Source of the DNA: Myxococcota bacterium
GTDB taxonomy: Bacteria; Myxococcota; JACRCW01
Length of the DNA: 64,000 nucleotides
Direction: 5' to 3'
Assembly (NCBI GenBank): GCA_040752415.1
Contig: JBFMGU010000006.1
Coordinates: 7,779 to 71,778, forward strand
Below the pieces are notes generated by a model. It saw nothing but the letters and a program-made list of their open reading frames with translations. It was not told the DNA's origin and made no database searches. Below are positions 3,711 through 60,649 of the stretch, piece by piece (position 1 is the first letter of the stretch; every line of letters starts with the position of its first letter). The position numbers and the translations under genes were made by a program.

Positions 3711-6700
3711 GTGCCACATACGTCACCCATGTCTTCCTGGGTCATCACCGCGCCGCAGCGCTGGCCGCTCTGCACGCTGGCGTATCTCAAGGGCAAGGGC
3801 CTGGAGTACGCGCGCGAACGGGCGGGCCGGATGCCACGCACCTACCAGCAGGCGCCGCGGCTGGACGGTGACCACCTCCTTGCCACCCTCACCTCCTTCC
3901 CGCCCGACTCCGATCCTCGTCGTGACTCCCGCAACCCGGAGCGCGTGGCCATCCTGGTGGTGCGCGGTCCCCGTCAGACCCAGCTGCGCGTGGAATGCAC
4001 GTGCGGCGTGTACCGGTGTCTGCACGCGCTGGTGCTGCTGACGGACCTGGCGGTGTGGCCGGACTTCACCCGTGCGCTGACGACGGGACGGGACACCTCC
4101 GCGCTGCTCTCCGGCCTCGACGCTCGACGGGTGGGCCAGCTCCACTCCGCGGCCCTGGAGCAGCGGCTGGGCATCTGGATGAAGGTCCCCGCGGCGCGGG
4201 CGCCCCAGCCGGTGCGCTTCGTGGTCTCGCCGCAGTGGCTCACCGCGGAATGGAACGGCTCCCCGCGCGCGGATTCCACGCCGGCACTGGCGCTGGACGT
4301 CTACGTGGGAACCCGCACGCGGCCGCTTTCCGTCGACGAGCTGGAGACCGCCGCGCTCACCACCGCCGACCGCGAGCTGCTGGAGCTGTGCGTGCTCCAC
4401 CGCTTTGGCGGCGGAGGGTTCGCGGCGCGTGGCTCGGTGGCGTCGCAGGTGCTGGCACAGCTGGAGGGCCGCGCGGTGATGCAACCGGCCAACGTGCGAG
4501 AGGACGAGCGCCCCCTGGCATTCGAGCCGTGGCGTCTGCTTCCGCGCGTGGTGCGTCGCACCGTGCCCCGCGGCTGGCTCCCGGGTGAGGCTCCCGACGA
4601 GGACGACGCCACGGTGGACGCCCTGGTGGCGGAGTGGGCCACCGCCGACGGCACGGTGGTCTCACCCATGACGCGCACCATGTTCTACCCGGGGAGGTCT
4701 CCGCGCGTGCTCTTGTGGGACCGCCTGGTGGTGGCGCACGTGGCGCCCGGCGTCGACGCGCTGCTCGCGCTGCACCTGCAGCGTCAGCCGGTGGTGCGCG
4801 TGGATGATTCCACCACCGCCGCGGCGGCCTGGAACACGCTGCGGAACGCCTGGCGGGGACGCGGGGTGGCCCTGCCCGCGCCGGAGCACGTGGAGGTGGC
4901 CACGGAATCCGCGCTGGCGTTGTGGCTCGCCGTCGACGGGAGCACGCTGCAGGTGGAGGCGCGCCTGGTGGCGGAATACGCCTTTGGCGCCTTTGACCTC
5001 CACCCCGACGAGGCCACCCGGGATCCCCGACGGGACGCCGCGCGCGAGGACGCCGCCGTTGCCGCGGTCCAGGAGGCGGGGCTCAGCTACGACGAGGGCC
5101 AACGCCTCTGGACCGCGGAGGACGACGCGGCCGCGCGCTGGTGGCTGCGCGGTGTCGGCTCCCTGCCCGACGTGGAGGTGCGGGTGGCGGAGTCCCTACT
5201 GGGCATCCAGGTGCGCGGCGCGCTCAAACCGCACCTCGGCGTGGGCGTGATGCAGGGCATGCTGGAGGCGTCGCTGGTGCTGGACGTGAACGGCCTGCGC
5301 GCGGACATGGAGGACGTGCGGCAGGCGCTCCGACGGAAGCGGCGCTTCGTCCGGCTCTCCGACGGAACGCTGGCGGAGATGCAGGACCACCTGCGCGCGG
5401 TGCTGGAGGAGAACCCGGAGCTGGTGACCGGGGGCGGCGTGGCGCGCATCCCGCTGCACCAGGGCGCGCGCGTGCACGCGTGGCTCACCGAGCTGGAAGG
5501 CACCACCAGCAACGAGCCCGCGCAAGCCTGGCGTGACGACGTCACCCGCGGTCCATGGGCGGAAGCGGAGCTGCCCGAGGGCCTGACGGTGGACCTGCGT
5601 CCCTACCAGCGCGAGGGCGTGGCGTGGCTGCAATGGCTCACCCGCGTGGGCGCCGGCGGAATCCTCGCCGACGACATGGGGCTGGGGAAGACGGTGCAGA
5701 CGTTGTGCTGGCTGGCCGGGCTGCATCGGGAGAGGGACGCGGGCACGTCGCTGGTGATCTGTCCCACGTCGGTGGCGCACCACTGGGCGGCGGAAGCGGC
5801 GCGCATGATCCCCTCGCTGCGCGTGGAGGTGTGGCACGGCGCGGAGCGCAAACGGCAACGCCCGAAGGAGCTGGACCTGCTGGTGACGACGTACGGCGTG
5901 GTCCGCCAGGACGCCGACTGGCTCTCCCAGCAGACGTGGAAGGCGCTGGTGCTGGACGAGGCGCAGCAGATCAAGAACGCCGACGCCGTCACCTCCCGCG
6001 TGGTGCGCCAGCTCCCGGCCAGCGTGCGCGTGGCGCTGACCGGAACACCGCTGGAGAACCGGCTGCTGGACCTCTGGACGCTGGTGGACCTGGTGAACCC
6101 GGGGCTGCTGGGCCCGCGCAAGCACTTCGAGGCATTCGTGGAGCCGCTGGTGATGCGTGAGCCCGACGGGTGGCAGTCCCGCCGCATCCGCACGCGCGTG
6201 GCGCCCTACATCCTGCGTCGCACCAAGGCCCAGGTGCTGCGCGACCTCCCCGAGAAGATCGAGCAGGACCGGTCCGTGCTGCCCACCATGCAACAGCGGC
6301 GCGTCTATGATGCCGTGGCCGCCATGGCCCGTGCCGACGTGGCCCGCATGCTGCGCAACAAGGGTGTGGAGCAGGCGCGCATCACGGTGCTGGCCGCGCT
6401 GACCCGCCTGCGCCAGGTGGCGTGCGACCCGCGCCTCGTCGACCCGGAGCGTTCCGCGGAGGAGAGCGCCAAGCGCATGGAGTTCCTGGCGCTGGTGGAG
6501 AGCCTGGTGGCGGCGGGACGACGCGTGTTGGTGTTCAGCAGTTTCGTGGAGCTGCTGACGTTGTGGCGCCGGGACCTGCATGAGCTGGGAATCCGCCACG
6601 AGTACCTGGACGGCGCCACGCGCGACCGCGCGGAGGTGGTGCGTCGTTTCCAGGAGGGCGACGCGCCGCTGATGGTGGTGAGCCTGAAGGCGGGCGGTAC

Positions 6701-6994: not shown

Positions 6995-8605
6995 TCAGCG
7001 ACGTCGACGGAGCAGCACCAACAACCCGGCCACCAACAAACCGATGCGCACGTCGGGCGAATCCGGCGTGGCCGCGCAGCGGCAGCCACGCTCACCGGTC
7101 TCGCCATCACTCGCCGCCCCACCGCTGGACATCGTCACCCCGCCTGGCGCACCGCCGCTGGACGAGCTCGCCGCCGCGCTGCTGGAAGAGGATGACGTTG
7201 ACGCAGCGGTGGAGGACGACGAGGACGACGTCAACGACGACGAGGACGACGAGGACGAGGCCGCCGCCGCGCTGCTCGAGGTGCCACCGGTGGTCGCGCC
7301 GGATGCGCTCGTCGAGCTGGCGCTGCCGGTCGCCGCACTGGAGCTCACCGTCGCGCTGGATGTCGTCGTCGCGGAGCTGGACGTCGAGGTGCCGCTGCCG
7401 GACGAGGCGCCGCCGGACGACACACTCGCGCTGGAAGAAGCCGTGGAGCTGGACGTCACTTCCTGCACCGACGACGACACGCCCCCGGTCGACGTGCTCG
7501 ACGCGACCGAACCGCTCGACGCCGCCGAGCTCGAGCTCTCCGCCCCGCCGGTCGAGCTTGCAGCCGACGTGGAGGATGACGCCGAGGAGCTGCTGGAGCT
7601 GGTCGCGGGCAACACGCGAAGCGTCACCGACACGAGCACCGACCCGCTCACCACGTCATCCGAGTGGACGAACATCCCGCCCGAATACACGTCCGCGACC
7701 AGGCCCGTCGGGTCCACGCGCAGCATGAGGGTGGCGGTTTCATCGCTGAGCAGCGTTCCGGATGCGGTCAGCTCGTCCAGCCACGCGTCCTCCGGCCACA
7801 CCGAGGTGGTCCAAGCCACGTCGGTGTGTTGGGCCGGCGTCACCAGCAGCTCCACCGGCACTTCCACCGCCGGCGAACCTTCCTGCACTGAAAGCTCGAC
7901 ATCGGTGGGTTCGACGACGAGCTGGGCGTTGGGTGTCAGCACGTCCGTGCTGGGTGTGTGGGTGGCCGACACGAAGCTGAACACCACCTGCACCGGGAAT
8001 TGCGGAACGGTGAAGGAAAGGAGATCGCCACCCGGCACGCCACCCTGGCCATAGTTTTCGTCCCAGGAGAGGTTGATCGCGGCCTTCCAGGACCACGTCC
8101 CGGGCGGCAGCTGGGAATCCAACGTCATCGTGTAGACGCCGTCTCCGCCGACGTCCTGGAGCCAGCTCCGCATGCAGTCGGGCGTCCAGTCACCCGGGCA
8201 GCCGATCTGGCTCTGGTAGTCGCCCGGCGCGGTGACGATGCGATGCGAAACGTTGTTGGGTGCCCAGTGGGTCCGCTCGCTGAAGTAGAACCGCACGTTC
8301 TGGGCGGAAGCCAGCTCCAGCGTGTACGACTCTCCATTGGGAACGCCGCCCACACCGTAGTTCTCTTCCCAGCTGTTGTTGATCGCGATCTTGTATTGCC
8401 AGGTGCCGGCAGGGACGAAAGCGCTGAACCGCCACACGTCGTCGAAGCCACGGGTGAGCTGCGTGTTGCCGCACGTGGGGTCCCAGTCCGCGGGGCAGCC
8501 GAGCGCCGATTGGAGGGAACCGGCCAGCGTCACGGAGGCGGGCTGGGCGCTGGCGCCGACGGGACTCAGCAGGAGAACGGCAATGAAGACATGGCTGCGG
8601 CGCAT
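6995..8605 (-). CDS. secreted protein with two tandem carbohydrate-binding-like (pullulanase-associated-domain-like) modules and a MYXO-CTERM-type sorting tail
   Basis: Signal peptide MRRSHVFIAVLLLSPVGASA. The table ORF starts 11 codons earlier at 8638. Two ~100-aa repeats carry G.LQSALGCP.DW.P.C ... W.YK.AIN.SW.ENYG. A ~190-aa Ser/Thr/Ala low-complexity linker follows. The C-terminus GCRCAATPDSP..IGLLVAGLLVLLRRRR has the Cys, hydrophobic helix and Arg cluster typical of the Myxococcales MYXO-CTERM signal. Confidence 0.8.
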   Translation of the reverse strand: MRRSHVFIAVLLLSPVGASAQPASVTLAGSLQSALGCPADWDPTCGNTQLTRGFDDVWRFSAFVPAGTWQYKIAINNSWEENYGVGGVPNGESYTLELASAQNVRFYFSERTHWAPNNVSHRIVTAPGDYQSQIGCPGDWTPDCMRSWLQDVGGDGVYTMTLDSQLPPGTWSWKAAINLSWDENYGQGGVPGGDLLSFTVPQFPVQVVFSFVSATHTPSTDVLTPNAQLVVEPTDVELSVQEGSPAVEVPVELLVTPAQHTDVAWTTSVWPEDAWLDELTASGTLLSDETATLMLRVDPTGLVADVYSGGMFVHSDDVVSGSVLVSVTLRVLPATSSSSSSASSSTSAASSTGGAESSSSAASSGSVASSTSTGGVSSSVQEVTSSSTASSSASVSSGGASSGSGTSTSSSATTTSSATVSSSAATGSASSTSASGATTGGTSSSAAAASSSSSSSSLTSSSSSSTAASTSSSSSSAAASSSSGGAPGGVTMSSGGAASDGETGERGCRCAATPDSPDVRIGLLVAGLLVLLRRRR

Positions 8606-9800: not shown

Positions 9801-10631
9801 TCAGGAGCCGATGCCGCCGGCGCCGCCACCGCCCCAGCCACCGCCACCGCTGCCCCCGCCGCCGACGAACCGGCCGCCACCCCAGCCGCTGTCGCCGCCA
9901 CCCACGGAACGACCACCTCCGCCACGACGACCGATCGAGCCGCCACCACTGTCGCCACCGCCGACGAACCGGCCGCCGCCGCCACCGCTGTCACTGCCAC
10001 CCACGTGACGACGGGGGCTGATGCCGGAATCCAGGCCCCCGGTGCGCGCGTCCACCAGCGCGCCCAGGCCACCGCGACCGGCCTTGGGCATGGGGAAGGG
10101 ACCGGCGTACTGGGTCATGCCGGCAAACCCACCGGAGCGCTCGATGAAGAACTGCGTGGCCTTGTCGGGGTCGGTCTGGGGAGAGCCGGGTCGCAGGCCG
10201 CCGGTGGGAATCAGCACGGAGTAGGCGAACCCGTCGGGATGACGCTCCCGCATGAGCTCCTCACGGAACATGCGCGGGCCGAGGGGAAGCGAGGACTGCC
10301 AGTTCACCGTGCCGCGCGTGTTGAGGCTGTTGAACTTGGCCAGGATGGCGCTGGCCGTGCTCGGGCTGAGCTTGCCGTCGTCGCCACCACCGCTGCGCTC
10401 GTGCTGGGCCACGAAGGCCTGCAGGACCTCGCGCGCACCGTCGGTCATGGTGGCCTTGGCGAGCACATCCTTGGCCGCCTTCAGCTCCGAGGTGCTCACC
10501 TTGCCATTGCCGTCCAGGTGACGGAGCGCCTTCTCCGCTTCCGTCTTGGACAGCTTCTTGCCGGAGGTGCTCCCGGCCTTCTGGAACTCCTGGATTGCGG
10601 AATTGAACTGCTTCACCGACGAGATCGCCAT
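9801..10631 (-). CDS. hypothetical protein with an EF-hand-like loop and a glycine-rich C-terminal tandem repeat
   Basis: Starting at ATG 10631 gives MAISSVKQFNSAIQEF.... A DGNGKVSTSELK loop resembles an EF-hand. The C-terminal ~90 aa consist of GGGDSGGG..RFVGGG units encoded by ~42-bp tandem DNA repeats at ~9830-10000. Confidence 0.55.
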   Translation of the reverse strand: MAISSVKQFNSAIQEFQKAGSTSGKKLSKTEAEKALRHLDGNGKVSTSELKAAKDVLAKATMTDGAREVLQAFVAQHERSGGGDDGKLSPSTASAILAKFNSLNTRGTVNWQSSLPLGPRMFREELMRERHPDGFAYSVLIPTGGLRPGSPQTDPDKATQFFIERSGGFAGMTQYAGPFPMPKAGRGGLGALVDARTGGLDSGISPRRHVGGSDSGGGGGRFVGGGDSGGGSIGRRGGGGRSVGGGDSGWGGGRFVGGGGSGGGGWGGGGAGGIGS

Positions 10632-14675: not shown

Positions 14676-14919
14676 GGCTCTCTCCTCCCGGCGCGACCGT
14701 GCCGGCGGACCTGATGGGCTGTTGCCTCGGACAGGCGCGGAGAGAGCACACGCCGTGCCGACCCGCGGGCGGTAGCACGCTCACCGTGAAATGCGTGGTT
14801 CTCCTCGAGAAAGCGCAGTGGGGGCCAGGTGGGAGACGCGGCGAAGGGGCGCACGCGGGACAGGCGCGGGCATTCCATGGGGCACCTGAGCCTCATGGCG
14901 CCTGGCGTCGGTGGGCAGG

Positions 14920-15371
14920 TTTTCCCTCTCCCTCTCCCTCTCCCCCTCCCCCTCCCGGGATGTCAGCGGGACGTGTCCACGTGATCCGCATCAGGCGAGC
15001 CGTTCGGTCGCAGGCAGCCGAGGCTGCACCTGGAAAGGCACCAGCCCTGCCCGCGCGGACCTTCTTCACGACGTCATCGTCGGCAGGGCTCTACCTTGGT
15101 GGCGGTAGGGAACGTGGCTCGGGACAAGCAGCCTCAGGCCGCGCCCCCGTCGTCAAAACCCACCTTCTGCGAACCACGTCCCCTACCCCGCCGAGGTGGA
15201 GCCCTGCCGACGCTGACGTCGTGAAGAAGGTCCGCGCGGGCAGGGCTGGGTGCCTTCCCAGGTGCAGCCTCGGCTGCCTGCGACCGAACGGCTCGCCTGA
15301 CGCGGATCACGTGGACACGCCCCGCTGACATCCCGGGAGGGGGAGAGGGAGAGGGAGTGGGAGTGGGAAAA
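14920..15371. repeat. large imperfect palindrome. The ~190-bp inverted arms are ~93% identical and are separated by a ~70-bp spacer. Each arm is tipped by a (CCCTCT)n simple repeat
   Basis: Arm 1 (14920-15110) is ttttccctctccctctccctctccccctccccctcccgggatgtcagcggg...cgtcggcagggctc. The reverse complement of 15181-15371 is nearly the same sequence. The ORFs 14911..15108(+) and 15183..15392(-) encode near-identical peptides only because of this symmetry. Confidence 0.85.
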
Positions 15372-15419
15372 CCTGCGCGTGGCGCACTGCACTCCGGGTG
15401 CTGCGACCAGCCACGTCCC

Positions 15420-16344: not shown

Positions 16345-16414
16345 GCGGCCCTCCGCCGTTCCGCCACGGAGCTAACCGTTGCCCACCCGGTCGCCAACGC
16401 GTTTCCGCCCGACG

Positions 16415-17599
16415 TCACGGACCCGGGGGCACGCTCCCGCCGCCCGCGCCCGCGGAGCCGCAGACCGCGCCACCGTCGGGGGTGGTGCCGCCGCCACCGC
16501 AGTTGCAGTCGCACGGCGGGCAGGTCTCTCCGGGCGCGCACGCCGGGCAGGCGCAGGCGCATCCGCCGCCACCGGTTCCCCCGCTGGAGGGCTGCGACTG
16601 GCACACGCCACTGACGCACGTCTCCCCTTCGCGACACGGCATGCCGAGCCCGTACCACACACACGCGTGCATGGTGTCCTCGGCGCACGCGGTGGCGTCG
16701 GTGTGTGTGTTGCAGGGATCGGAGGCCATGCCACCGTCGTGGTCCATGCAGTCGCAGGAGCACGGCTCACAGGTCTGGCCCTCGGGACACGCGGGACACG
16801 CGCAGGTGCACGCACCGGTGCTGCCTCCGCTGCCTCCCGAACCGGGCTCACCGCCGCCGGTGCTCCCGCTGCCGGAGCACGCGCAGTCGCAGGGCGGACA
16901 CTCGCCCAGGGACTCGTCGCAGGCGGGGCACACGCAGGTGCACGTCCCGTCGCCGGAGCAGCTGGTGCCGCCGCTGTCACCGCTGTTGCAGTCGCACGCG
17001 CACGGCGGGCAGCTCTCTCCCGGTGCGCACGCGGGGCACGCGCAGGTGCAGGTGCCACCCTCGTCGCCACCGGGCTCGCCGTCGGAGGCGCAGCTGCACT
17101 CGCACGGCGGACACTCGGCGCCCTCCGGGCAGTACATGGGGCACGCGCACAGGCAGTCATCTCCGCCGCCACTTCCACCGGCCTGGTAGCAGACGCCCTC
17201 CCCGCAACCCGCTCCCCCCGTCGGGCAGAGGCGCTCCAACCTGGCCCACGCACAGCTGTTGGCCGTGTCGGCGGCGCAGCTCGCGCTGTCGCTGTGCGAC
17301 GCACAAGGATCCTGCACGTGACAACTTCCCGCCGGGCAATCGGGACACGCTGCTTCCATCCCGGACCAGACACAGCCGTTACCGGTATCCGCTTCACAAC
17401 CGCCTTCCTCGACGTGGGCAGCGCACGGGTCCCGGGCATCATACGCGGCCACCAGGGCACCGGAGGACCCACCACCCGACGAGCTCGACGACGAAGTGGA
17501 ACCCGATGACGAGCTGGTGCTGCTGCTGCTCGACGACGATTCCGGGGTGCATCCCCACACCAGCACCGCGACCATCCACACTGGGGCTGTTGCTCTCAT
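16415..17599 (-). CDS. cysteine-rich repeat lipoprotein
   Basis: A lipobox (MVAVLVWGC) is followed by a Ser-rich linker and at least 5 tandem copies of CTCACPAC.PGE.CPPC.C-type units, ~70 Cys in total. Three other long ORFs in other frames or on the other strand over the same DNA are artefacts of the repeat composition. Confidence 0.7.
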   Translation of the reverse strand: MRATAPVWMVAVLVWGCTPESSSSSSSTSSSSGSTSSSSSSGGGSSGALVAAYDARDPCAAHVEEGGCEADTGNGCVWSGMEAACPDCPAGSCHVQDPCASHSDSASCAADTANSCAWARLERLCPTGGAGCGEGVCYQAGGSGGGDDCLCACPMYCPEGAECPPCECSCASDGEPGGDEGGTCTCACPACAPGESCPPCACDCNSGDSGGTSCSGDGTCTCVCPACDESLGECPPCDCACSGSGSTGGGEPGSGGSGGSTGACTCACPACPEGQTCEPCSCDCMDHDGGMASDPCNTHTDATACAEDTMHACVWYGLGMPCREGETCVSGVCQSQPSSGGTGGGGCACACPACAPGETCPPCDCNCGGGGTTPDGGAVCGSAGAGGGSVPPGP

Positions 17600-17765
17600 G
17601 GCGCTCTCCTGAAGTTGGTGGCACCAGTGTCCTCCGGGCCCCTGCGGTCCTCAACCCCTTTGTCGTCGAGAAAAACGCTCCGCAACGATTGCGCCTCTTC
17701 GTGGTGAATCCTTTGGGCGCGGCGCGGCTCCCACCCCTGAGGAGCCTGCAGGAGGAGACACGCAC

Positions 17766-18113
17766 ATGGTTTGGATTCGCTGGGTGGTGATTGCCGCGGT
17801 GGTTCTGGTGGCGTGGACGTTGTACGCGCAGCTGAGCAGCAAGCAGTCGGCGGAGGCGCACCGCCTGGTCAGCCAGGGCGCGGTGCTGCTGGACGTGCGC
17901 ACCAGGGAGGAATTCACCGCGGGCCACCTGCCGGGCGCCATCAACATCCCCGTGCAGGACCTCACGCAGCGCATGGCGGAGGTTGGCCCCGACAAGAAGA
18001 AGCCGGTGGTGGTCTATTGTCGCAGCGGCAATCGCAGCGCGCGGGCGAAGCGCATGTTGACGGAGGCGGGCTACCAGCAGGTCTTTGACCTCGGGGCGAT
18101 GTCCAACTGGTAG
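17766..18113 (+). CDS. single-domain rhodanese (sulfurtransferase, GlpE-like) with an N-terminal TM helix
   Basis: 115 aa. It has LLDVRTREEF.AGHLPGAINIP and the catalytic CRSGNRS loop. Confidence 0.85.
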   Translation: MVWIRWVVIAAVVLVAWTLYAQLSSKQSAEAHRLVSQGAVLLDVRTREEFTAGHLPGAINIPVQDLTQRMAEVGPDKKKPVVVYCRSGNRSARAKRMLTEAGYQQVFDLGAMSNW

Positions 18114-22448: not shown

Positions 22449-22942
22449 CGTCGGACTGTGTCGGTTTGTCCGTGTCAGCGAAGGCCGGCGAACAGGGGCT
22501 GCGTCAAGAGAAATTGCCCATCTGGTCCTGACCGCCTCCAGCGGACCACGACCTGGAGTGCGGCGGGCCCTCGCCGCCCTGGTCAGCGGTGAGCGGTTTG
22601 GACAACCGTCAAGGATCCAAGCGCCTCGCCCGACGTCATTCAGCCCCAGGGCTGTTAGGCCCGTTGTGAACGCGCTCGGCGCCGACCAGGGCGGCGCGGG
22701 CCCGCCGCACTCCAGGTCGTGGTCCGCTCACGACGTCTGCAACCCCACCGGGCCATTGCTCCAACACGGACGACGTCAACGCGCACCTCCCCCGGCTCAT
22801 TCCGCCGCGCGCAGGCGGCCGTCATGCGCCACGCGGAGCCAGATGCTCACACGTTTCCCGGCGTGAACGCGTGGTCACACCGTCGGGAAAACTTGTGCGG
22901 CGCGTCCCCGTCGATGTCTCCTGCGTGGGCAAGGAGTGATCC

Positions 22943-32237: not shown

Positions 32238-33705
32238 CATGTCCCAGAGACACAAGATGTGGATTGGCGGGGAATGGGTGGACGCACGCAACGGTGCCAC
32301 GCGCGACGTCATCAATCCCGCCGACGGCAGCGTGCTGGCGCGGGTTCCCGAAGCGGGGACCGAAGAAGTGGCGCGCGCGGTCCAGGCGGCGCGTGAGGCG
32401 TTTGATCACGGTCCGTGGGGCAAGAGCATGCACCGTGACCGCGGACAGATCCTCTTCAAGGTGGCCGAGGGCATCCGCGCCCGCGCGCGCGAGCTGGCGG
32501 AGCTGGATACGCGCAACATGGGCAAGCCCGTCGTGGAGGCGGAGTTCGACGTTACCGACGCGGCCCACTGCTTCGAGTACTACGCGGGCATGGCGAGCAA
32601 GATCCACGGCATGACGCTGCCCGTGCCGGACAACGCGCTCTCCCTCACCGTGCGCGAGCCGGTGGGCGTGGTGGGGCAGATCATTCCGTGGAACTACCCG
32701 CTGCTCATGGCGGCGTGGAAGCTGGCACCCGCGTTGGCGGCGGGCTGCACCGCGGTGCTCAAACCGGCCGAGCAGTCACCGTTGTCGGCGCTGGTCCTGG
32801 CGGAGATCCTCGACGAGGCGGGAGTTCCGCCCGGCGTGGTGAACGTGGTCACCGGGGACGGACCGGTGGCGGGCGCCGCGCTGGTGGCGGACCCGCGCGT
32901 GGACAAGATCGCGTTCACCGGCGGCGTCGAGGCGGGACGCACCGTGGTGAAGCGCGCGGCGGACACCATGAAGCGCACCACCATGGAGCTCGGCGGGAAG
33001 AACCCGAACATCGTGTTTGCCGACGCGGACCACGTGGCGGCGGTGGATGGTGCGCTGTTCGGCGCGTTCGCGAACCAGGGCGAGGTGTGCTCGGCGGGGT
33101 CGCGGCTGCTCGTCGAGAGGACGATCTATCCGCAGATGGTGCACGCGCTGCGCGAGAAGGTGAAGGCCGTGCGCCTAGGCAACCCGCTGGACCGCGAGAC
33201 GAAGATGGGACCGCTGGTGACGTCGGAACACCGGGACCGCGTGCTGCGCTACATCGAGATTGGCAAGAAGGAGGGCAAGCTCTTGTGCGGGGGAAGCGCG
33301 GCCATGAGCGCGGAGCTGCGCCACGGGTTCTACGTGGAGCCCACCATCTTCGTCGACGTGGAGCCCAGGGCGCGGATTGCGCAGGAGGAGATCTTCGGGC
33401 CGGTGCTGGCGGTGATTCCGTTCGACACCGAGGACGACGCGGTGCGGATTGCCAATGACACGCCGTACGGTCTGGCCGGCGCGGTGTGGACGCGCGACGT
33501 GTTCAAGGGACTGCGCGTGCTGCGGCAGATTCGCGCGGGGATCCTGTGGCTCAACACGTACCACCCCACGTACAACGAGGCGCCCTGGGGCGGTTACAAG
33601 CAGTCGGGTTTCGGGCGTGAGCTCGGGGTGTGGGGCATCGAGAACTACCTCGAGACCAAGCAGATCAACGTGAATCTCAACGAGGCGCCCATCGGCTGGT
33701 ATTGA
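32238..33705 (+). CDS. NAD(P)-dependent aldehyde dehydrogenase
   Basis: It has the catalytic block ELGGKNP, and the catalytic Cys lies in GEVCSAGSR. The C-terminus is GGYKQSGFGRE. ATG 32238 follows GAGGGAGG. Confidence 0.95.
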
Positions 33706-33726
33706 GGCGTGGGTGGCGGGTTGGGG

Positions 33727-34013
33727 TTGGTGGCACGTTGGCCCCCCACCCGGCCGCCAGCCGATCACTGAGTTCACGACGTGGCGGCCGACCTCCCCCA
33801 CGGTGTGGGGAGGCGTAGATGTGCCGCCTCGCTGGAACGGTGCGCGCATTGGGCGGCACGGGCTCAATGAGGCCTTGTGCCGCGCTTGGCTCAATGAACA
33901 ACCCCGACGCGGCACATCTACGCCTCCCCACACCGTGGGGGAGGTCGGCCGCCTCGTCGTGAACTCGGTGAAATCGGTTGGCGGCCGGGTGGGGGGGCCA
34001 ACTCGCCACCAAC
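33727..34013. repeat. large inverted repeat. The ~105-bp arms are ~93% identical and the loop is ~75 bp. It fills the gap between two convergent genes
   Basis: Arm 1 (33727-33830) is ggttggtggcacgttggccccccacccggccgcc...gtggggaggcgtagatgtgccgc, and the reverse complement of 33905-34013 matches it. The loop holds a short direct repeat (gctcaatga). Its sequence is unrelated to the 14920..15371 palindrome. Confidence 0.8.
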
Positions 34014-34022
34014 CCCACCGGG

Positions 34023-35534
34023 TCACGGCCGGGTCGCGGTGACCTCGCGCTTCCGCGTCGACAACTCCCGCGCAATCGTATCCGCCGCGGCCATGGCGCT
34101 GCGCGCCGCACCGTCGGAGTGACCACTCCAGGTGTAATCCCCGACGAGCCACGTCCCCAGCTCGGGCTCCCGCAACCGCTGGTGCTTCTCGTCCATCGGC
34201 GACCGACCCGGCGGCCACACCGCAATGGAACCCGGGTGATACGTGTACGCCGTCGTCGTCACCACGTGGCGCGAAAACCCCGGCCACAGCCGGTCCATGG
34301 CCGCAAGCATCTCCTTCACCTTGTGGTCGCGCGGCGCCATGTGGAACGCGCTGGCATTCACTCCGTGCACCAGGAAGGAGAACACCTCGTTCGCCTCGTC
34401 CTCCGGACTCTCGCTCTGCGCGCCGTAGATGACGCCCAGCACGCCGTCGGTCAGGTAGGGGAACGGGTCCTGCCCATCCACGTACGTAAGCTTGCGGTGC
34501 TCCTTGCTCACCACCATGTGCACCACGGTGTACTGCCCGCGCATCAACGTGCTCACCGCCTCCCATTTCGCCGACGACAGCGAAGGCTCGAAGTGGATCT
34601 GGTGCAACCGCCAGAACGGCACCGCCACCACCACGCGCTCCGCCGCCACCACGTGCTGCGTTTCCTCAACGCCCTGCCGCAGGAACGTGACCCGCGCCCT
34701 GTCCCCTTCGCGGTCAATGCGACTCACCAGCGCGGAGGTCAGCGCGTTCGGGCCCGCTTCCTTCGCCAGCGCCTCGATGAGCCGGGAGTTCCCGCCCTTC
34801 ACCTTGTAGTTGGGCTCGCCCTCCCCGAGGAACACGCCAAACTCCAGCAGCCCCACGAGCCCCGAGAAGAGCTCCCAGCTCGTCGCCAGCTCGCACTCGA
34901 CGGTGAGGCGGATCCAATCCTCCACGCGCTTGCCCATCTTGAAGCCGCGCACCCACGTCGCAAAGGAGACGTCCTGCAGCGCCCGGACCTCCGACGCCGC
35001 GAGCCCCCGGGAGAGCGCCACGCCGCGCAGGGCCCGCGCATCCTCCATCCACCACCGGAGCACGCGCGCGTTCTTCACGCCCAGCAAGCTGTGGAAATAC
35101 TCCTCGGTGGTGTCCTGCACGTACGGATACAGCTTCCCGTCCAAGACCATGCTGGAGAACGGCGCTTCCACGTCGCCATCCAGCTCCACGCCCAGGTCGC
35201 GAATCACCTCGAGCAGCGGGTTGTCACCCCAGATCTCCTGCAGTCCGTATTCCGCACGGAGACCGTGACCGTAGTGGGCGGTCTGGACCCGCCCGCCAAA
35301 CTGCTCGCTGGCCTCCAGCAACAGGAACGAGACGCCGCGCTTTTTCAGCTCATGCGCCGTCACCAGGCCCGCCAGGCCGCCGCCCACGATGACCACGGGA
35401 GCTTCCGTCGGCACCGGGCCCGCGTGCGCGTCAGGCGCGGACTGCGCGTGCGCCTCCGGCTTCCGGCACGACGTGACGGCGAGCAGGATGAACAACACGA
35501 ATGGGAGGGTGGGACGCGCGGTGATGGGACCCAT
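34023..35534 (-). CDS. flavin-containing amine oxidase lipoprotein
   Basis: Starting at ATG 35534 gives MGPITARPTLPFVLFILLAVTSC, a lipobox. The FAD dinucleotide fold is VVIVGGGLAGLVTAHELKKRG. The C-terminal amine-oxidase region has DYTWSGHS.GA. The upstream 85 codons of the table ORF were rejected. Confidence 0.85.
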   Translation of the reverse strand: MGPITARPTLPFVLFILLAVTSCRKPEAHAQSAPDAHAGPVPTEAPVVIVGGGLAGLVTAHELKKRGVSFLLLEASEQFGGRVQTAHYGHGLRAEYGLQEIWGDNPLLEVIRDLGVELDGDVEAPFSSMVLDGKLYPYVQDTTEEYFHSLLGVKNARVLRWWMEDARALRGVALSRGLAASEVRALQDVSFATWVRGFKMGKRVEDWIRLTVECELATSWELFSGLVGLLEFGVFLGEGEPNYKVKGGNSRLIEALAKEAGPNALTSALVSRIDREGDRARVTFLRQGVEETQHVVAAERVVVAVPFWRLHQIHFEPSLSSAKWEAVSTLMRGQYTVVHMVVSKEHRKLTYVDGQDPFPYLTDGVLGVIYGAQSESPEDEANEVFSFLVHGVNASAFHMAPRDHKVKEMLAAMDRLWPGFSRHVVTTTAYTYHPGSIAVWPPGRSPMDEKHQRLREPELGTWLVGDYTWSGHSDGAARSAMAAADTIARELSTRKREVTATRP

Positions 35535-40528: not shown

Positions 40529-40842
40529 CGCGTCGATGTTGACTACGACGTGGAGGGCACCGGTCCCACGGTGTTGCTGCTGGCCGGCCTGGGCTACGGC
40601 GGCTGGTACTGGCGTCACGTACGCGCGCGGCTGTTGCCGCACTGCTCCGTCGTCACCGTGGACAACTGCGGCTCCGACGGCTCCGAGAAGCCCGCCGGTC
40701 CCTACACCACCGCGCTGCTGGCCGAGGACCCGGCGGCGGTGCTGGACGCGCTGGGACGTTTCTCGACGACGGTGGTGGGGCGCTCGCTGGGCGGACTGAT
40801 TGCGCAGGAGTTGGCCGTGGCGCCGTCGGACCTCGTCGGCTG
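40529..40842 (+). pseudogene. truncated, degenerate copy of the N-terminal ~105 codons of alpha/beta hydrolase 38331..39143
   Basis: ~92% nucleotide identity to 38384..38683. The GHSLGG elbow is changed to GRSLGG, NRGSD is changed to NCGSD, and the frame runs into unrelated sequence (..CGSQTRMSAPQLES) with no hydrolase C-terminus. Confidence 0.65.
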
Positions 40843-41072
40843 CGGCTCGCAGACAAGAATGTCCGCGCCACAGCTTGAGAGCCAATGGAGCTCCCGCCGA
40901 CGACCCCCGTGAAGTCGCTGGGCGCCGCAAGAGGTCCGTGGCGCGGACATTTCTGCCTGCGATCCGCGGCGACGCGGCTCACCGTCAGCCTGCAGCCTCG
41001 TTGGGCGATCGTTGGACGGGGTGCGGTATCGACGAGGACTTCGATCCAGTCGTTTCTCTCCGCGCCGGCTCC

Positions 41073-46626: not shown

Positions 46627-47502
46627 ATGGAGAAGCGGCCTCTGGGTGCAACGGGGATGCAGGTCTCGGTGCTGGGCCTGGGCGCGGGTCACGTGGGCGG
46701 CGCGGAGCTGTCCGAGGACCACGTGGGCTGGCTGCTCAACGCCGCGTTGGACCTGGGCGTCAACCTCGTCGACACCGCGCGCGGCTACGGGCTCTCGGAA
46801 GAGCGCATCGGGCGTCACCTGGCGTGGCGACGACGTGATTTCGTGCTGGTGAGCAAGTGCGGCTACGGCGTGGAGGGGGTGGCGGACTGGACGCCGGAGT
46901 GCATCCGCGTCGGCGTGGACCAGGCGCTGCGTCGCATGCGCACCGACCACATCGACGTCATGATGCTGCACTCCTGCCCGCGCGCCACGTTGGAGCAACC
47001 GGGGCTGCTGGACGCGCTGGACGACGCGGTGCGCGCCGGCAAGGTCCGCCACGCGGGGTACTCCGGCGAGAACGAGGACCTGGCCTACGCGATCTTGACG
47101 GGGTGTTTCACGGTGTTCGAGACGTCGGTGAATGTGTTTGACCAGCGTGGCCTGTGGGAGCTGGTTCCGCGCATGGGCGCCGCGGGGGTCATTGCGAAGC
47201 GGCCGGCGGGGAATGCGCCGTGGCGTTTCGTCGAGCGGCCCCACGGGCATTACGGCGAGGTGTACTGGGAGCGCATGGTGCAGTTGGGGCTGCGGCCTGG
47301 TCCGCTGTCCTGGACGGAATACGCGTTGCGGTTTGCCGCGCATGCGCCGGGAGTGCACTGCGCCATCGTCGGGACGTCCAGCGTGGAGCACCTGCGGGAG
47401 AACGTGCGCGCGGTGGAGGCGGGGCCGTTGTCGTCGGAGGTGTTTGCCGAGGCGCGCGCTGCGTTTGAGCGGGTGGGGAGAGATTGGCGGGGGCAGGTGT
47501 GA
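46627..47502 (+). CDS. aldo/keto reductase
   Basis: ATG 46627 gives MEKRPLGATGMQVSVLGLGAGH.... DTARGYG and IDVMMLH are present. It is divergent from the acyltransferase-3 gene, with an 80-bp gap. Confidence 0.9.
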   Translation: MEKRPLGATGMQVSVLGLGAGHVGGAELSEDHVGWLLNAALDLGVNLVDTARGYGLSEERIGRHLAWRRRDFVLVSKCGYGVEGVADWTPECIRVGVDQALRRMRTDHIDVMMLHSCPRATLEQPGLLDALDDAVRAGKVRHAGYSGENEDLAYAILTGCFTVFETSVNVFDQRGLWELVPRMGAAGVIAKRPAGNAPWRFVERPHGHYGEVYWERMVQLGLRPGPLSWTEYALRFAAHAPGVHCAIVGTSSVEHLRENVRAVEAGPLSSEVFAEARAAFERVGRDWRGQV

Positions 47503-47509
47503 GGTCCGG

Positions 47510-47785
47510 TCCCAGCGGCGCGCCGGCCTCCCGAGTCAGGGCGTGAGCGTGGGCCGGCTCTCGGACTGCGGCATGAAGTGCCGCTTTGCCTTGGTGCACC
47601 CATTGAGACCGGGGTCGTCATGCGGCCGAGCGAAAGCGGTACTTCATACCGCAGTCCGAGAGCCGGCCCCCGCTCACGCCCTGACTCGGGAGGCCGGCGC
47701 ACCGCTGCGACCTCACGCTTGCCCTGGCCAATCACCCCCAAAGCCGGCCCACGCTCACGGATTGACTCGGAAGGCCGGCGACGCC
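47510..47785. repeat. cluster of at least 3 REP-like ~40-bp units (cgccggcctcccgagtcagggcgtgagcgtgggccggctc), one in forward orientation and two in reverse orientation
   Basis: The forward unit is at 47518-47557. The reverse units are at 47655-47694 and 47741-47780. Each has a gccggcc...ggccggc internal stem. The first two form a ~50-bp-arm hairpin. Confidence 0.75.
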
Positions 47786-55145: not shown

Positions 55146-55159
55146 CGGAAGCCAGAAGT

Positions 55160-55281
55160 GCCCTTGCCCTGCCCGTGCCCGTGCCCGGCCTGTAGGTTCT
55201 CTCAGCGCAGAGGTTGTCTGCGGAGAACCCTCGTCGGGCGCTGAGCCCTCAAGCCGGGCACGGGCACGGGCAAGGGCAGCG
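55160..55281. repeat. nested inverted repeat between convergent genes. The 28-bp arms are gcccttgccctgcccgtgcccgtgcccgg, and the inner hairpin is ctcagcgc...gcgctgag. It is a likely bidirectional terminator or REP
   Basis: Read directly from the sequence. It lies 15 bp after the stop of 53955..55145 and 25 bp after the stop of the minus-strand gene ending at 55306. Confidence 0.65.
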
Positions 55282-55305
55282 TTTCTGGGATTGGCCGACA
55301 CACCC

Positions 55306-57468: not shown

Positions 57469-59235
57469 ATGACCCGACGGTGGCTACCGGTGATCCTGGC
57501 AAGCCTTGCGGCATGGGGCTGTCCCAGCACGGAACAAGCGTGCGACACCACGGAAGACTGTTTTGCGGGAACGGAGTGCGGCCCCGACGGGCGGTGTCAT
57601 CGCATCACGTCGTCATCGCTTTCCTCCACGTCGGCCACGTCCTCTTCGGGCTCCGCGGCATCCTCCGCCACAAGCTCCGCCTCGGCGTCGTCGTCCTCTT
57701 CTGCCTCATCGGCCGCGGTGGGGACCTCAACGTCGTCCTCATCGTCCGGCGCCTCGGGGGTGGCCTCGACGAACAGCGCCACCACGACCAGCACCTCCCA
57801 GGCGGCCTCTTCCAGCAGCAGCTCCAGCGGCCAGAGCACCTCCCTCTCCACGGCAGCGTCGTCGACAACGTCCTCCTCGTCGTCGTCCACGGGCGCCACG
57901 TCATCCGCCTCCGCCGCGGCCACATCCACGAGCGGCGGGACAACCACGTCTTCGGCGGCCGTTTCCTCGTCGTCCTCGTCGTCCTCGTCGTCGTCCTCGT
58001 CGTCCTCGTCGTCCTCGTCGTCTTCTTCGTCGTCCTCGTCCAGCAGCGGGTGGGCGGTGAGCAGCTCGTCGTCCGGGCAGCCACACTGCGGGGGCCCGCC
58101 GGCATTCACGGATGACTTTTCCAGCACCTATGTGGACAGCGCTCGCTGGGTCGTCACGGCGGAGGGCGTTTCGGTCAACCAGTTTTCCTCCAAGCTCTCC
58201 GTCTACTTTCCCGCCAACGGCGAGCAGGATCCCCACGGCGGCGTGACCACGACGCTGCGGTACGACGTCAGGGGCTCGTATGCGTCGGTGAAGGTCGACT
58301 CGGTGGGAGGCGAGCAGATCGCTCCGTCGCTCGCCATCACGGATCCGGACAACCTGGCCCGGGGCTTCATGCTGGAGCGGCAAGCCGGGGAGCTGGTGTT
58401 CATGGTGGACGGGGTCGAGCAGGCGCGCGCGGCCTTCGTCCCAGGCACGGATGTGTGGTGGCGGATCCGGGAGGCGTCCGGCGTGGTGTACTGCGACACG
58501 TCGGCTGACGGGGCCAACTGGGCAACGCGCTTGTCGGTGATTTCCTCCCAGAGTGCATTGGACCTGTCCCGCGCCGTGGTGGCGTTGCAGGCGCGGCACC
58601 TGTCGGGCGGGCCGGGTGATGGCAGCTCGGCAAGGTTCACCAACTACAACGGCGGGGGCGTACCCGCGGAGCCGTTCTGCCCAAGTCTTTCGTTCTCGCA
58701 GGACCTGACCCGGCCCCTGCCCGATCCGGACTTCACCTTCGAGGGGACGTGCCCCATCGCCGCCACGCCAGGCGGACTGAGCTTCACCATTCCCGGCACG
58801 GCGTGCTCCAGCGCCTATTCATCCGCCACGGCCTACAATCTCGTGGACTCCGCGGTGTTCGTGGAGCTCTCCGACGGCACGAACGCGAGCGCGTACATGG
58901 GGCTGGAAGTGAGGACCGCGGACGGGCTGTACGCGGCGTCGTTCTCCCGGGTCAGTGGTGGTGGGTTCTACGAAGCGCGGACCATCGTGCCCGGCATGTC
59001 CTCGCCGGTCCGGAGCGATATGCTGGGAGGGGTCCAACACCTCTGGCTCAAGATCGCGCAGGAGGGCACGCTGCTCGTCTGGTACTACAGCAGCGACGGG
59101 CTCACCTGGATCGCATTCGCCAGCACCATCGCGGACACGCCGTTCTCGGACGTGCGGATCAAGCTGTTCTTCTCGAGCAACGGCCAGCCCAACGGGTCCA
59201 GCGCGCTCTTCAACCACCTGAACACGTCGCCGTGA
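57469..59235 (+). CDS. lipoprotein with an N-terminal Cys-rich module (CDTTEDCFAGTECGPDGRCH), a very long Ser/Thr linker and two tandem beta-rich domains
   Basis: ATG 57469 gives MTRRWLPVILASLAAWGC, a lipobox. It contains an uninterrupted 27-Ser run. The table ORF starts earlier at 57175 in a poor context. Confidence 0.7.
   Translation: MTRRWLPVILASLAAWGCPSTEQACDTTEDCFAGTECGPDGRCHRITSSSLSSTSATSSSGSAASSATSSASASSSSSASSAAVGTSTSSSSSGASGVASTNSATTTSTSQAASSSSSSSGQSTSLSTAASSTTSSSSSSTGATSSASAAATSTSGGTTTSSAAVSSSSSSSSSSSSSSSSSSSSSSSSSSSSGWAVSSSSSGQPHCGGPPAFTDDFSSTYVDSARWVVTAEGVSVNQFSSKLSVYFPANGEQDPHGGVTTTLRYDVRGSYASVKVDSVGGEQIAPSLAITDPDNLARGFMLERQAGELVFMVDGVEQARAAFVPGTDVWWRIREASGVVYCDTSADGANWATRLSVISSQSALDLSRAVVALQARHLSGGPGDGSSARFTNYNGGGVPAEPFCPSLSFSQDLTRPLPDPDFTFEGTCPIAATPGGLSFTIPGTACSSAYSSATAYNLVDSAVFVELSDGTNASAYMGLEVRTADGLYAASFSRVSGGGFYEARTIVPGMSSPVRSDMLGGVQHLWLKIAQEGTLLVWYYSSDGLTWIAFASTIADTPFSDVRIKLFFSSNGQPNGSSALFNHLNTSP
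57964..58040 (+). repeat. trinucleotide/9-bp (tcctcgtcg)n microsatellite encoding the poly-Ser run
   Basis: Near-perfect tandem 9-bp units are read directly from the sequence. It lies inside the CDS 57469..59235. Confidence 0.8.
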
Positions 59236-59512
59236 CGGGCGCAGCGACGGCAATCCGGCGGACCTGGCCCCCTTCACGCGTGGCGGTGATGACCCCGTGA
59301 CCACAGTACGGAGCCGTTCCGTGCCCGCGTCGGTCATCAGCGACGCGCCATGGATGTCCAGCGTGTACCTTGGATGCCCACGTTCCCGTGCGGCCGCCGC
59401 CGTGAACGGGTCCGCATCCCATGGCAATCATTGATGATTCTCCCCGCGGCCTCGCGCGCCTGGGCCTGGGCACGCTCCTTGGATTGTCGGGTGGTCACAA
59501 GGAGAAACCACC

Positions 59513-59905
59513 ATGCTGACCACGCTCACCCTCGCCCTGCTCGCCCTCACCGCGGAGCCGCACGCGCCCACGTGCGGTGAGGTCGCCGCGCACCAGGCCG
59601 CGCTCCTCTCCCGCAACCTGGCGCCCCTCTCCCGTCCCACCATGACGACGGAGCTGGAAGCGCAGTGCCGCGAGGAGGCGTTCAGCGTTGCGCTCCGTCG
59701 GTGCGTGGTCTCCGCGCGCAGCTTCACCGCCGCGCAGCGCTGCACCGCGCCCACCCCGGAGATCGTCGTCGACGGGAGCACGCCCTCCCTCTTCTTCGCC
59801 CTGCCCCGCCCGGACCGGGTCATCCGCATCGCGCGGGCCACGCTGCCGCAGCCGTCCGCACCGGAGACCACGCGCACGGTTTCTGCCGGGGCACCGCGTC
59901 GCTGA
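59513..59905 (+). CDS. small secreted hypothetical protein (130 aa)
   Basis: AAGGAGAAACCACC precedes the ATG at 59513. The signal peptide is MLTTLTLALLALTAEPHA. The mature part contains 4 Cys. Confidence 0.5.
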   Translation: MLTTLTLALLALTAEPHAPTCGEVAAHQAALLSRNLAPLSRPTMTTELEAQCREEAFSVALRRCVVSARSFTAAQRCTAPTPEIVVDGSTPSLFFALPRPDRVIRIARATLPQPSAPETTRTVSAGAPRR

Positions 59906-59980
59906 GGGGCGTCTCGACGCCTGCGCTCGCCGTGTCCTCCAGCAATTCCGACGACGAGCGGGTACCCGGACGGGTCCGCC

Positions 59981-60649
59981 TCACGCCTCCCGACGGCGGT
60001 ACCGGCGCGACCAGACCGCGATGAGCGGCGTGATGACGACGGTGGGCGCCAGCCACGCCGCCAGCATCCACTCCCCCGGCAGCACGCGGTTGGCGTTGGT
60101 GACCAGGAACGCGGTGAGCGTGGCGATGCAGGAGATGAGCATGGCGCCCAGGTGCTCCCGCAGCCACCAGCCCTTCTCCGAGGGAACCGCGCGCATCCGT
60201 CGGAGCTGCGGCACCGCCACCAAGAGCCCGAGCGGCACGAAGGTCATGCCCAGCACGTAGCCCACGCGCACCGACTGGACCCCCAGGGCCACCGTGGCCA
60301 CGACGAGCATCAGCGGGAGCACGTGGTCCACCACCACGCGGTGCGGCGCGGTCCGCGTCTTCTGGCGCAGCACCCTCACGCCGTAGAAGGCGGTGGTGAG
60401 CGACATCAGGCCCACGTAGCCCAGGAACAACACGCCCATGGGATTGCGCTCCGGGTTGTGCACCAGGCGCAGCGGCACCACGCAGAACGTGGTCAGCGCG
60501 GCCACCATCATGGCCGCCACGTAGGCCACGCCCACGCGTCGGTGCACCGTGTTGCCCTTGGTGACGACGAGCGGGACCCAGAAGGTGGCCAGCGCAACGC
60601 CACCGGCGATGACGTGCAGGGCAATCAGCGCATCCATCAGCGTCGACAC
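59981..60649 (-). CDS. integral membrane protein of unknown function (~6 TM)
   Basis: 222 aa with alternating hydrophobic helices, an Arg-rich C-terminus, and GC3 bias. Confidence 0.6.
   Translation of the reverse strand: MSTLMDALIALHVIAGGVALATFWVPLVVTKGNTVHRRVGVAYVAAMMVAALTTFCVVPLRLVHNPERNPMGVLFLGYVGLMSLTTAFYGVRVLRQKTRTAPHRVVVDHVLPLMLVVATVALGVQSVRVGYVLGMTFVPLGLLVAVPQLRRMRAVPSEKGWWLREHLGAMLISCIATLTAFLVTNANRVLPGEWMLAAWLAPTVVITPLIAVWSRRYRRREA

Follow-up and report, generated by a model that had tools for sequence, protein, structure and literature searches.

What is a 297-bp palindrome doing in the gap between two convergent genes? The question is raised by an imperfect, non-coding palindrome (positions 33721-34017, here called H33) that lies between an aldehyde dehydrogenase (ALDH) gene and an amine-oxidase gene in a metagenome-assembled genome (MAG) of a Myxococcota bacterium. 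We analysed H33 within the 64-kb stretch of DNA that surrounds it (the window, ~70% GC), and the answer that we reached is that H33 is most likely a two-way transcript-end hairpin rather than a recognisable mobile repeat. In its fullest form, that of an apparently single-copy DNA-level inverted duplication serving as an oversized bidirectional 3'-end hairpin, we give this answer about an even chance of being correct.

The palindrome and its setting

The ALDH gene (32239-33705, + strand) encodes a protein of 488 aa that starts MSQRHK and matches PF00171 (E 3.5e-182); its TGA stop codon occupies positions 33703-33705. Facing it is a flavin amine oxidase gene (34023-35534, - strand; PF01593 and PF13450) whose stop codon at 34023-34025 reads TCA on the + strand, and whose 503-aa product has a lipoprotein-like N-terminus and is 100% identical to MEW5847550.1 ('MAG: Myxococcota bacterium'). 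An earlier note on this DNA, made from the sequence alone, held that the repeat exactly fills the gap between these two convergent genes, and this was borne out. The distances of 22 and 10 nt to the two stop codons given there are correct for the span 33727-34013; the true edges of the palindrome lie 15 nt past the ALDH stop and 5 nt short of the amine-oxidase stop. (Note that the 3' end of the ALDH gene contains a 24-nt direct repeat, 33573-33596 and 33678-33701, 79% identical, that reflects a repeated NEAPxGxY peptide motif and lies outside the hairpin.)

The wider neighbourhood is that of an ordinary chromosome. A saccharopine-dehydrogenase-like gene is the upstream neighbour of the ALDH gene, and the window also carries argS, the genes for a PPDK-type enzyme, an SNF2 helicase and a histidine kinase, and similar genes. 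The gene map of the window was built from GC3, and the 46 GC3-supported genes were scanned against Pfam; none of the 46 encodes a transposase, reverse transcriptase (RT), integrase or RAYT/Y1-transposase domain, and there are no tRNA genes in the window. Two stretches of 1.7-1.9 kb each, 16371-18061 and 58115-59981, are without a GC3-supported gene call.

Arm alignment together with a repeat search placed the left arm of H33 at 33721-33831 (111 nt) and the right arm at 33905-34017 (113 nt); the two are 92% identical and enclose a loop of 73 nt (33832-33904). When 33713-33831 was aligned, with gaps, to the reverse complement of 33905-34026, we counted 109 matches, 10 mismatches and 3 gap columns, and the outer limit of pairing was sharp, at 33721/34017. 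Thus the repeat described in the earlier note is real, and the arm identity of ~93% reported for it agrees with the 92-94% that we obtained over 33727-34013, although its arms of ~105 nt and loop of 75 bp need to be replaced by the values just given. The inner ends of the arms form a perfect block of 45 nt, GGCGGCCGACCTCCCCCACGGTGTGGGGAGGCGTAGATGTGCCGC, at 33786-33830, with an exact mirror at 33906-33950, that adjoins the loop and contains a small CCTCCCC/GGGGAGG sub-hairpin. If the 13 differences were evenly spread over the 122 columns, an uninterrupted run of 45 matching columns would have an estimated p of ~0.035; divergence is greater in the outer than in the inner parts of the arms. The outer end of H33 carries a short tandem hexamer/G-run tract, GGGTGGCGGGTTGGGGTTGGTGG (33708-33735). 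Within the loop, the direct repeat GCTCAATGA to which the earlier note drew attention does occur twice, the full unit being the 10-nt GGCTCAATGA at 33861-33870 and 33888-33897, 27 nt apart (the chance expectation for a 10-mer repeating within 73 nt is ~0.002), and there is a local GCGGCAC/GTGCCGC mini-stem.

H33 folds far better than expected by chance, whichever strand is considered. The minimum free energy is -294.2 kcal/mol for the + strand RNA (z -20.5), -276.7 kcal/mol for the - strand RNA (z -20.2) and -172.2 kcal/mol for single-stranded DNA (z -20.8), and in none of these three cases did any shuffled sequence fold as well. Folded singly, the arms were no better, or only slightly better, than their shuffles, and the loop folded alone was not unusually structured (z -0.9 and -1.4). 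The folding signal is therefore that of arm-to-arm pairing.

Searches with blastn found no second copy of any part of H33 in the 64-kb window, no further copy in 1.1 Mb of related Myxococcota loci and, at blastn sensitivity, nothing among plasmids and phages. An exact 22-mer from the perfect core had no match in GTDB species-representative genomes, JGI metagenomes or IMG/VR (collections to which the source MAG does not belong), and the pattern formed by one terminus, a gap and the other terminus had no match in JGI metagenomes. On the strength of these searches, H33 appears to be single-copy. Nor does it appear to encode anything: GC at the three codon positions is 0.76/0.65/0.73 in H33 versus 0.62/0.43/0.89 at the 3' end of the ALDH gene, and the two stop-free frames that cross H33 gave one low-complexity match among 1.8 billion proteins and none among 5.8 billion. 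The missing codon-phase signal argues against a copied piece of a gene as the source of the arms. No Rfam family was found anywhere in the window at the gathering score, and a permissive scan of the H33 locus returned as its sole sub-threshold match mir-1421, an animal miRNA precursor (32.9 bits versus a threshold of 45), which we attribute to the shape of the hairpin. H33 belongs to no named family. The interval 33000-34800 contains no terminator-like site, there is no U-tract on either side of H33 (the flanks are CCGGGTCACGG on the + strand and ACCCGCCACCC on the - strand), and there is no sigma-70-like promoter in or around it.

Giant hairpins in the window and in related loci

A second palindrome, near position 14920, had led to the claim that the window holds two independent large hairpins. 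Their independence was upheld, in that low-stringency blastn finds no similarity between H33 and 14915-15376, but the count was too low, for the window contains at least five or six large hairpins that are unrelated in sequence. The largest, H14 (14915-15376), has arms of ~197 nt with 186 matches around a 67-nt loop and lies in a tandem gap, 43 nt past the stop codon of a CBS-domain gene on the - strand. (The outer ends of H14, (CCCTCT)3(CCCCCT)2 and its complement, form a canonical G4/i-motif-type tract, with a period of 6 according to TRF.) Another tandem gap holds H22 (22540-22728; 56-nt arms, 93% identical, 77-nt loop), 92 nt past the stop codon of a TPR gene. H40 (40831-40977; arms of ~48 nt with 37 matches), which is weaker, lies in a convergent gap, 96 nt past the stop codon of a rhodanese gene. 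H47 (47499-47716, or to 47785 if a third arm is included) fills a convergent gap with 87-nt arms that are 91% identical around a 31-nt loop; the left copy of the arm (47508-47594) overlaps the TGA of an aldo/keto reductase gene, the right copy lies at 47626-47712, and a second, partial right arm (84-86%) follows at 47737-47780. Finally, H55 (55153-55292), with (GCCCGT)n arms, fills the convergent gap between stop codons at 55145 and 55306. H55 reached a z of -5.0 in a fold of 120-nt sliding windows, which are too short for hairpins with 70-nt loops and hence were informative only for H55.

All six hairpins, H33 included, are located just 3' of stop codons: they occupy four of the nine convergent gaps in the window and two tandem gaps, and are found in none of the ten divergent gaps. 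The arms of H47 show a codon-like GC phase (0.59/0.91/0.69), at which H22 also hints and of which H14 has no trace. The possibility that the H47 arm is a lost gene end was ruled out, since the aldo/keto reductase encoded upstream has a complete C-terminus.

No sequence similarity among the six hairpins was detected by blastn, and we found neither shared termini nor a significant motif across them. The 9-mer TCACGACGT occurs seven times in the window versus 0.92 expected, with four occurrences inside H14, H22 and H33 (15066, 15216, 22728 and 33774) and three outside the hairpins (30863, 38353 and 57126). We entertained this 9-mer as a shared hairpin motif and rejected it, as a three-way 9-mer arises in ~4% of shuffles and in ~19% of random region sets in this post-hoc comparison. 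Hexamer or G-run outer tracts like that of H33 were also seen in H55, with its (GCCCGT)n, and in two loci of related Myxococcota, L008 (5740-5780, (GGTCCC/GGTCCG)x5) and L006 (112-417, CCACG-type hexamers). Such tracts could be seeds for slippage or template switching, or could be protein-binding subterminal repeats.

The excess of long hairpins sets the window apart from related loci. A census of inverted repeats found four with arms of at least 50 nt in the 64-kb window versus none in ~1 Mb of Myxococcota argS loci, and a gapped blastn census of long hairpins found four in the window versus two in the relatives, both of them in the closest relatives, L006 and L008. Inverted repeats with arms of 12-19 nt were as frequent in the window as in the relatives, and in the inverted-repeat census the distribution of arm lengths was bimodal, with no smooth tail. 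In L008, directly after a stop codon, there is an element of 544 bp (5712-6255) with terminal inverted repeats of 64-70 nt, CTAG at both ends, and an interior that encodes the N-terminal fragment of a DUF772-type, IS5/IS1182-type transposase (MMIALLLYAYCTGIYSSRRIARATYEDIPLRVLAG); the ArgRS of this relative is 64% identical. Judged by its sequence, the element is a decayed insertion sequence or MITE, an IS5-like remnant, which implies that at least some long inverted repeats in the clade derive from insertion sequences. In another related locus, L003, the stop codon of the amine oxidase is immediately followed by a direct repeat of ~48 nt, GCGGGCTGCCGACGCTCGAGCGTTTACGCCTACAAGAGCGGCGGCCTT, whose two copies (7535-7582 and 7652-7699) are separated by 117 nt.

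The comparison of orthologous gaps that the earlier note had proposed proved informative at one point only, the 3' end of the ALDH gene in L001 (GCA_023248635.1). The nearest amine oxidases (63-65% identical) and ArgRS proteins (at most 67% identical) belong to different genera, in which synteny is broken at this gap; neither an empty-site nor a one-arm state of the H33 gap was recovered in the loci of the nearest relatives. The ALDH of L001 is 81% identical over 488 aa and its gene is preceded by the same saccharopine-dehydrogenase-like gene. It ends in an ordinary, terminator-like hairpin (9908-9968) with a 29-bp stem and a 3-nt loop, which includes the TAT-TGA end of the gene, has a z of -5.05 and is followed by UAUCUUGUG. 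Thus the position of a hairpin at the 3' end of the ALDH gene is conserved across genera, and its sequence and size are not.

Origin and role of the palindrome

Besides indels, the arms of H33 differ by six transversions and four transitions; of the latter, three produce a G·U pair on the + strand and the fourth does so on the - strand. When the six hairpins are taken together, transitions and transversions are about equally numerous, and wobble pairs show no preference for either strand. The lack of a wobble bias argues for an inverted duplication at the DNA level that was followed by drift, rather than for compensatory evolution at the RNA level, and a DNA-level inverted duplication is indeed what H33 looks like from its sequence. 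The perfect inner tract of 45 nt fits homogenisation through template switching, a process documented to give rise to inverted repeats, to make them perfect and to enlarge them (PMC5941160, PMC8794818, PMC13100816). H33 resembles the products of that process in that its arms, with their unbiased mismatches and perfect, homogenised tract, have the character of a DNA-level copy, but the documented events span tens of nucleotides whereas the arms of the hairpins in the window span 50-200 nt.

We envisage that template switching or a fold-back gave rise to H33 as an inverted duplication, and that it now occupies the whole of the spacer between two convergent transcription units. Either transcript would thereby gain a stem of ~110 bp that runs from 5-15 nt past its own stop codon to 5-15 nt before the stop codon of its partner. 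Such a stem might arrest or stall RNA polymerase at the border between the two genes and so limit antisense read-through into the partner; the stem would be complete with the polymerase still 5-15 nt short of the stop codon of the partner, so that antisense transcription of the partner would be cut short there. The stem might also define the 3' end of the mRNA, either as a block to 3'-exonucleases or as a substrate for RNase III, a role suggested by its long perfect duplex. RNase III acts on duplexes longer than ~20 bp.

Several observations support a role as a bidirectional 3'-end hairpin, namely the fold far beyond chance on both strands, the filled convergent gap, the intactness of both flanking genes, the 3'-end bias of the hairpin class as a whole and the ordinary hairpin at the 3' end of the orthologous ALDH gene in L001. 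The earlier note had allowed that absence of the repeat elsewhere in the genome, combined with clean read-through transcription, would mark it as just a long convergent terminator. The evidence points that way, with no other copy present in searchable sequence, of which the source MAG is not a part. Because there is no U-tract or canonical terminator motif at H33, however, intrinsic termination is unproven, and a stem of 110 bp with a loop of 73 nt is far outside known terminator geometry. The idea that a terminator grew gradually to this size is at odds with the bimodal arm lengths, which better fit a distinct generating process or type of element, and simple outward growth is at odds with the greater divergence of the outer arms.

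The strongest competing explanation, which we nevertheless consider unlikely, is that H33 is a non-autonomous foldback or MITE-like element that inserted into a convergent spacer of ~15 nt and duplicated CGGGT, that more copies are present in the genome of ~10 Mb and that any effects on the transcripts are incidental. CGGGT abuts the sharp left boundary of H33 at 33716-33720 and recurs at 34019-34023, offset by 1 nt from the right end, an arrangement with an estimated chance of ~0.02-0.05; it is a weak candidate for a 5-bp target-site duplication. Were it one, the spacer prior to insertion would have been 15 nt, and excision of the element together with one CGGGT does leave a plausible empty site, TGA-GGCGTGGGTGGCGGG-TCA (predicted empty allele TATTGAGGCGTGGGTGGCGGGTCACGG). 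The small size of H33, its terminal inverted repeats and its lack of coding capacity are those of such an element, the bimodal arm lengths suggest a discrete class of elements, and the IS5-like remnant in L008, with its long terminal repeats, likewise sits right after a stop codon. The preference of the hairpins for convergent gaps also fits, such a preference being typical of REPs and MITEs. But no second copy came to light in the 64 kb, the 1.1 Mb of related loci or the collections searched (the source MAG being absent from the collections), no convincing target-site duplication comparable to CGGGT accompanies any of the other five hairpins, and the palindromy of H33 extends along its whole length and is not confined to its termini. 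Moreover, given the lack of common termini (post-hoc p of ~0.04 for the best 9-mer in common), the six hairpins would have to represent six different families. We would also expect high-copy repeats of 300 bp to break metagenome contigs, as they usually do, yet a single contig of 89 kb spans all six.

It is also conceivable, and in our judgement improbable, that H33 is a by-product without function. A mutational bias of the lineage, be it frequent template switching or weak surveillance by hairpin nucleases, would then make long palindromes that persist only in places where they are harmless. Such places would be 3' spacers, above all those of convergent gaps, in which positive supercoiling makes the extrusion of cruciforms less favourable. 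The unbiased spectrum of mismatches between the arms, the uniqueness in sequence of every hairpin, the absence of hairpins from divergent, promoter-bearing gaps and the restriction of the excess to this genome would all follow, and template switching is, as noted above, a documented source of such repeats. Nevertheless, the presence of a hairpin at the same position 3' of the ALDH gene in a different genus (L001) suggests a need for one there, the perfect 45-nt inner block points to constraint or to homogenisation that still goes on, and a stem of this stability can hardly leave transcribed RNA unaffected.

We think it very improbable that H33 belongs to a known class of structured sequence, such as retron msr/msd, integron attC, a small-RNA gene or a protein-binding palindrome. 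In favour of this are that the hairpin is long and stable, that retrons are well known from the phylum and that Rfam yields the sub-threshold match to an miRNA precursor, a match that reflects hairpin shape only; but there is no RT or integrase beside H33 or among the genes of the window, no Rfam match at the gathering score and no sigma-70-like promoter in or around H33. Integron attC was rejected on the grounds that the ends of H33, TGGGGTTGGTGGC ... GCCACCAACCCCA, are without RYYYAAC/GTTRRRY core sites, that its length is 297 bp as compared with 57-141 bp, and that there is no integrase. Retron msr/msd was likewise rejected, the neighbours of H33 being an ALDH and an amine oxidase and the window being without an RT domain. 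That H33 is a chimeric fold-back created by assembly is scarcely credible, even for a metagenome-assembled genome, since its arms do not match perfectly (10 mismatches, 3 indel columns), it lies within the contig and not at an end, the genes on both sides are intact with no coding sequence duplicated, and five other hairpins of differing sequence are placed alike.

Returning to H33 as a bidirectional 3'-end hairpin, we raise, tentatively and as something we think doubtful, a more general proposal: that a process peculiar to this lineage, or an unrecognised type of fold-back element without shared termini, builds giant (100-460 bp), sequence-unique palindromes, as a discrete class of their own, specifically at the 3' ends of genes. 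The density of giant hairpins in the window is about one per 10-15 kb. If the proposal were true, terminator hairpins of 10-30 bp would have been replaced in this lineage by hypertrophied bidirectional insulators or by 3' ends processed by RNase III. Should the hairpins terminate or process convergent transcripts, then a high-GC bacterium would be using stems ten times the textbook length without a U-tract, which would bear on the mechanism of termination in GC-rich phyla. The excess of giant, unique palindromes in one lineage also offers a natural system in which to study how inverted repeats originate, by template switching or foldback insertion, and how chromosomes tolerate them. Should H33 be no more than an insertion that is neutral or selfish, it would be a curiosity of a single MAG and nothing out of the ordinary.

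Comparison with known systems

Bidirectional intrinsic terminators are like H33 in that a single palindrome in a convergent gap, just past both stop codons, folds on both strands, and the ALDH orthologue in L001 has a conventional version with a 29-bp stem at the same place. Of the features that define a canonical terminator, H33 has the location within ~100 nt of a stop codon and has neither the short stem and loop nor the U-tract. Its stem of ~110 bp compares with 5-20 bp in intrinsic terminators and its loop of 73 nt with 3-8 nt, and H33 is not flanked by the A and U tracts of the bidirectional kind.

Families of long palindromic repeats between genes, and MITEs, represented by ERIC, YPAL and Correia/NEMIS elements, share with H33 a non-coding length of 100-300 bp and the capacity to form long RNA hairpins in transcribed intergenic regions. 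These elements make up multi-copy families of conserved sequence, and those of them that are MITEs have defined terminal repeats and target-site duplications. In contrast, each of the hairpins in the window is unique, and H33 has only a weak, offset 5-bp repeat at its flanks.

The sib retroregulator of phage lambda, a 3' hairpin that is cleaved by RNase III, offers a different parallel. There, too, a long double-stranded stem lies downstream of a coding region and is formed only in read-through RNA, and the stem of H33 would be expected to be a substrate for RNase III, a prediction founded on stem length and the established specificity of the enzyme. sib and H33 have no sequence relation.

REPs, in the form of BIMEs and REPINs of E. 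coli and Pseudomonas, are extragenic palindromes that, like the hairpins in the window, concentrate at the 3' ends of genes and within convergent gaps. They differ from H33 in being ~20-40 nt long, present in hundreds of copies and tied to RAYTs, whereas H33 is ~300 bp long, no second copy of it was found and the window is without a RAYT. An assignment of H33 to REPs or REPINs was rejected: its arms exceed 110 nt, no part of it is repeated within the 64 kb, and no Y1-transposase domain is encoded by the genes of the window. Functionally, REPs have been reported to combine the roles of partial terminator and mRNA stabiliser, and the expression of convergent gene pairs that flank a REP to be raised (bioRxiv 10.64898/2026.03.23.713779). 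By analogy, this dual role as terminator and stabiliser would be the closest functional counterpart of the role that we envisage for H33.
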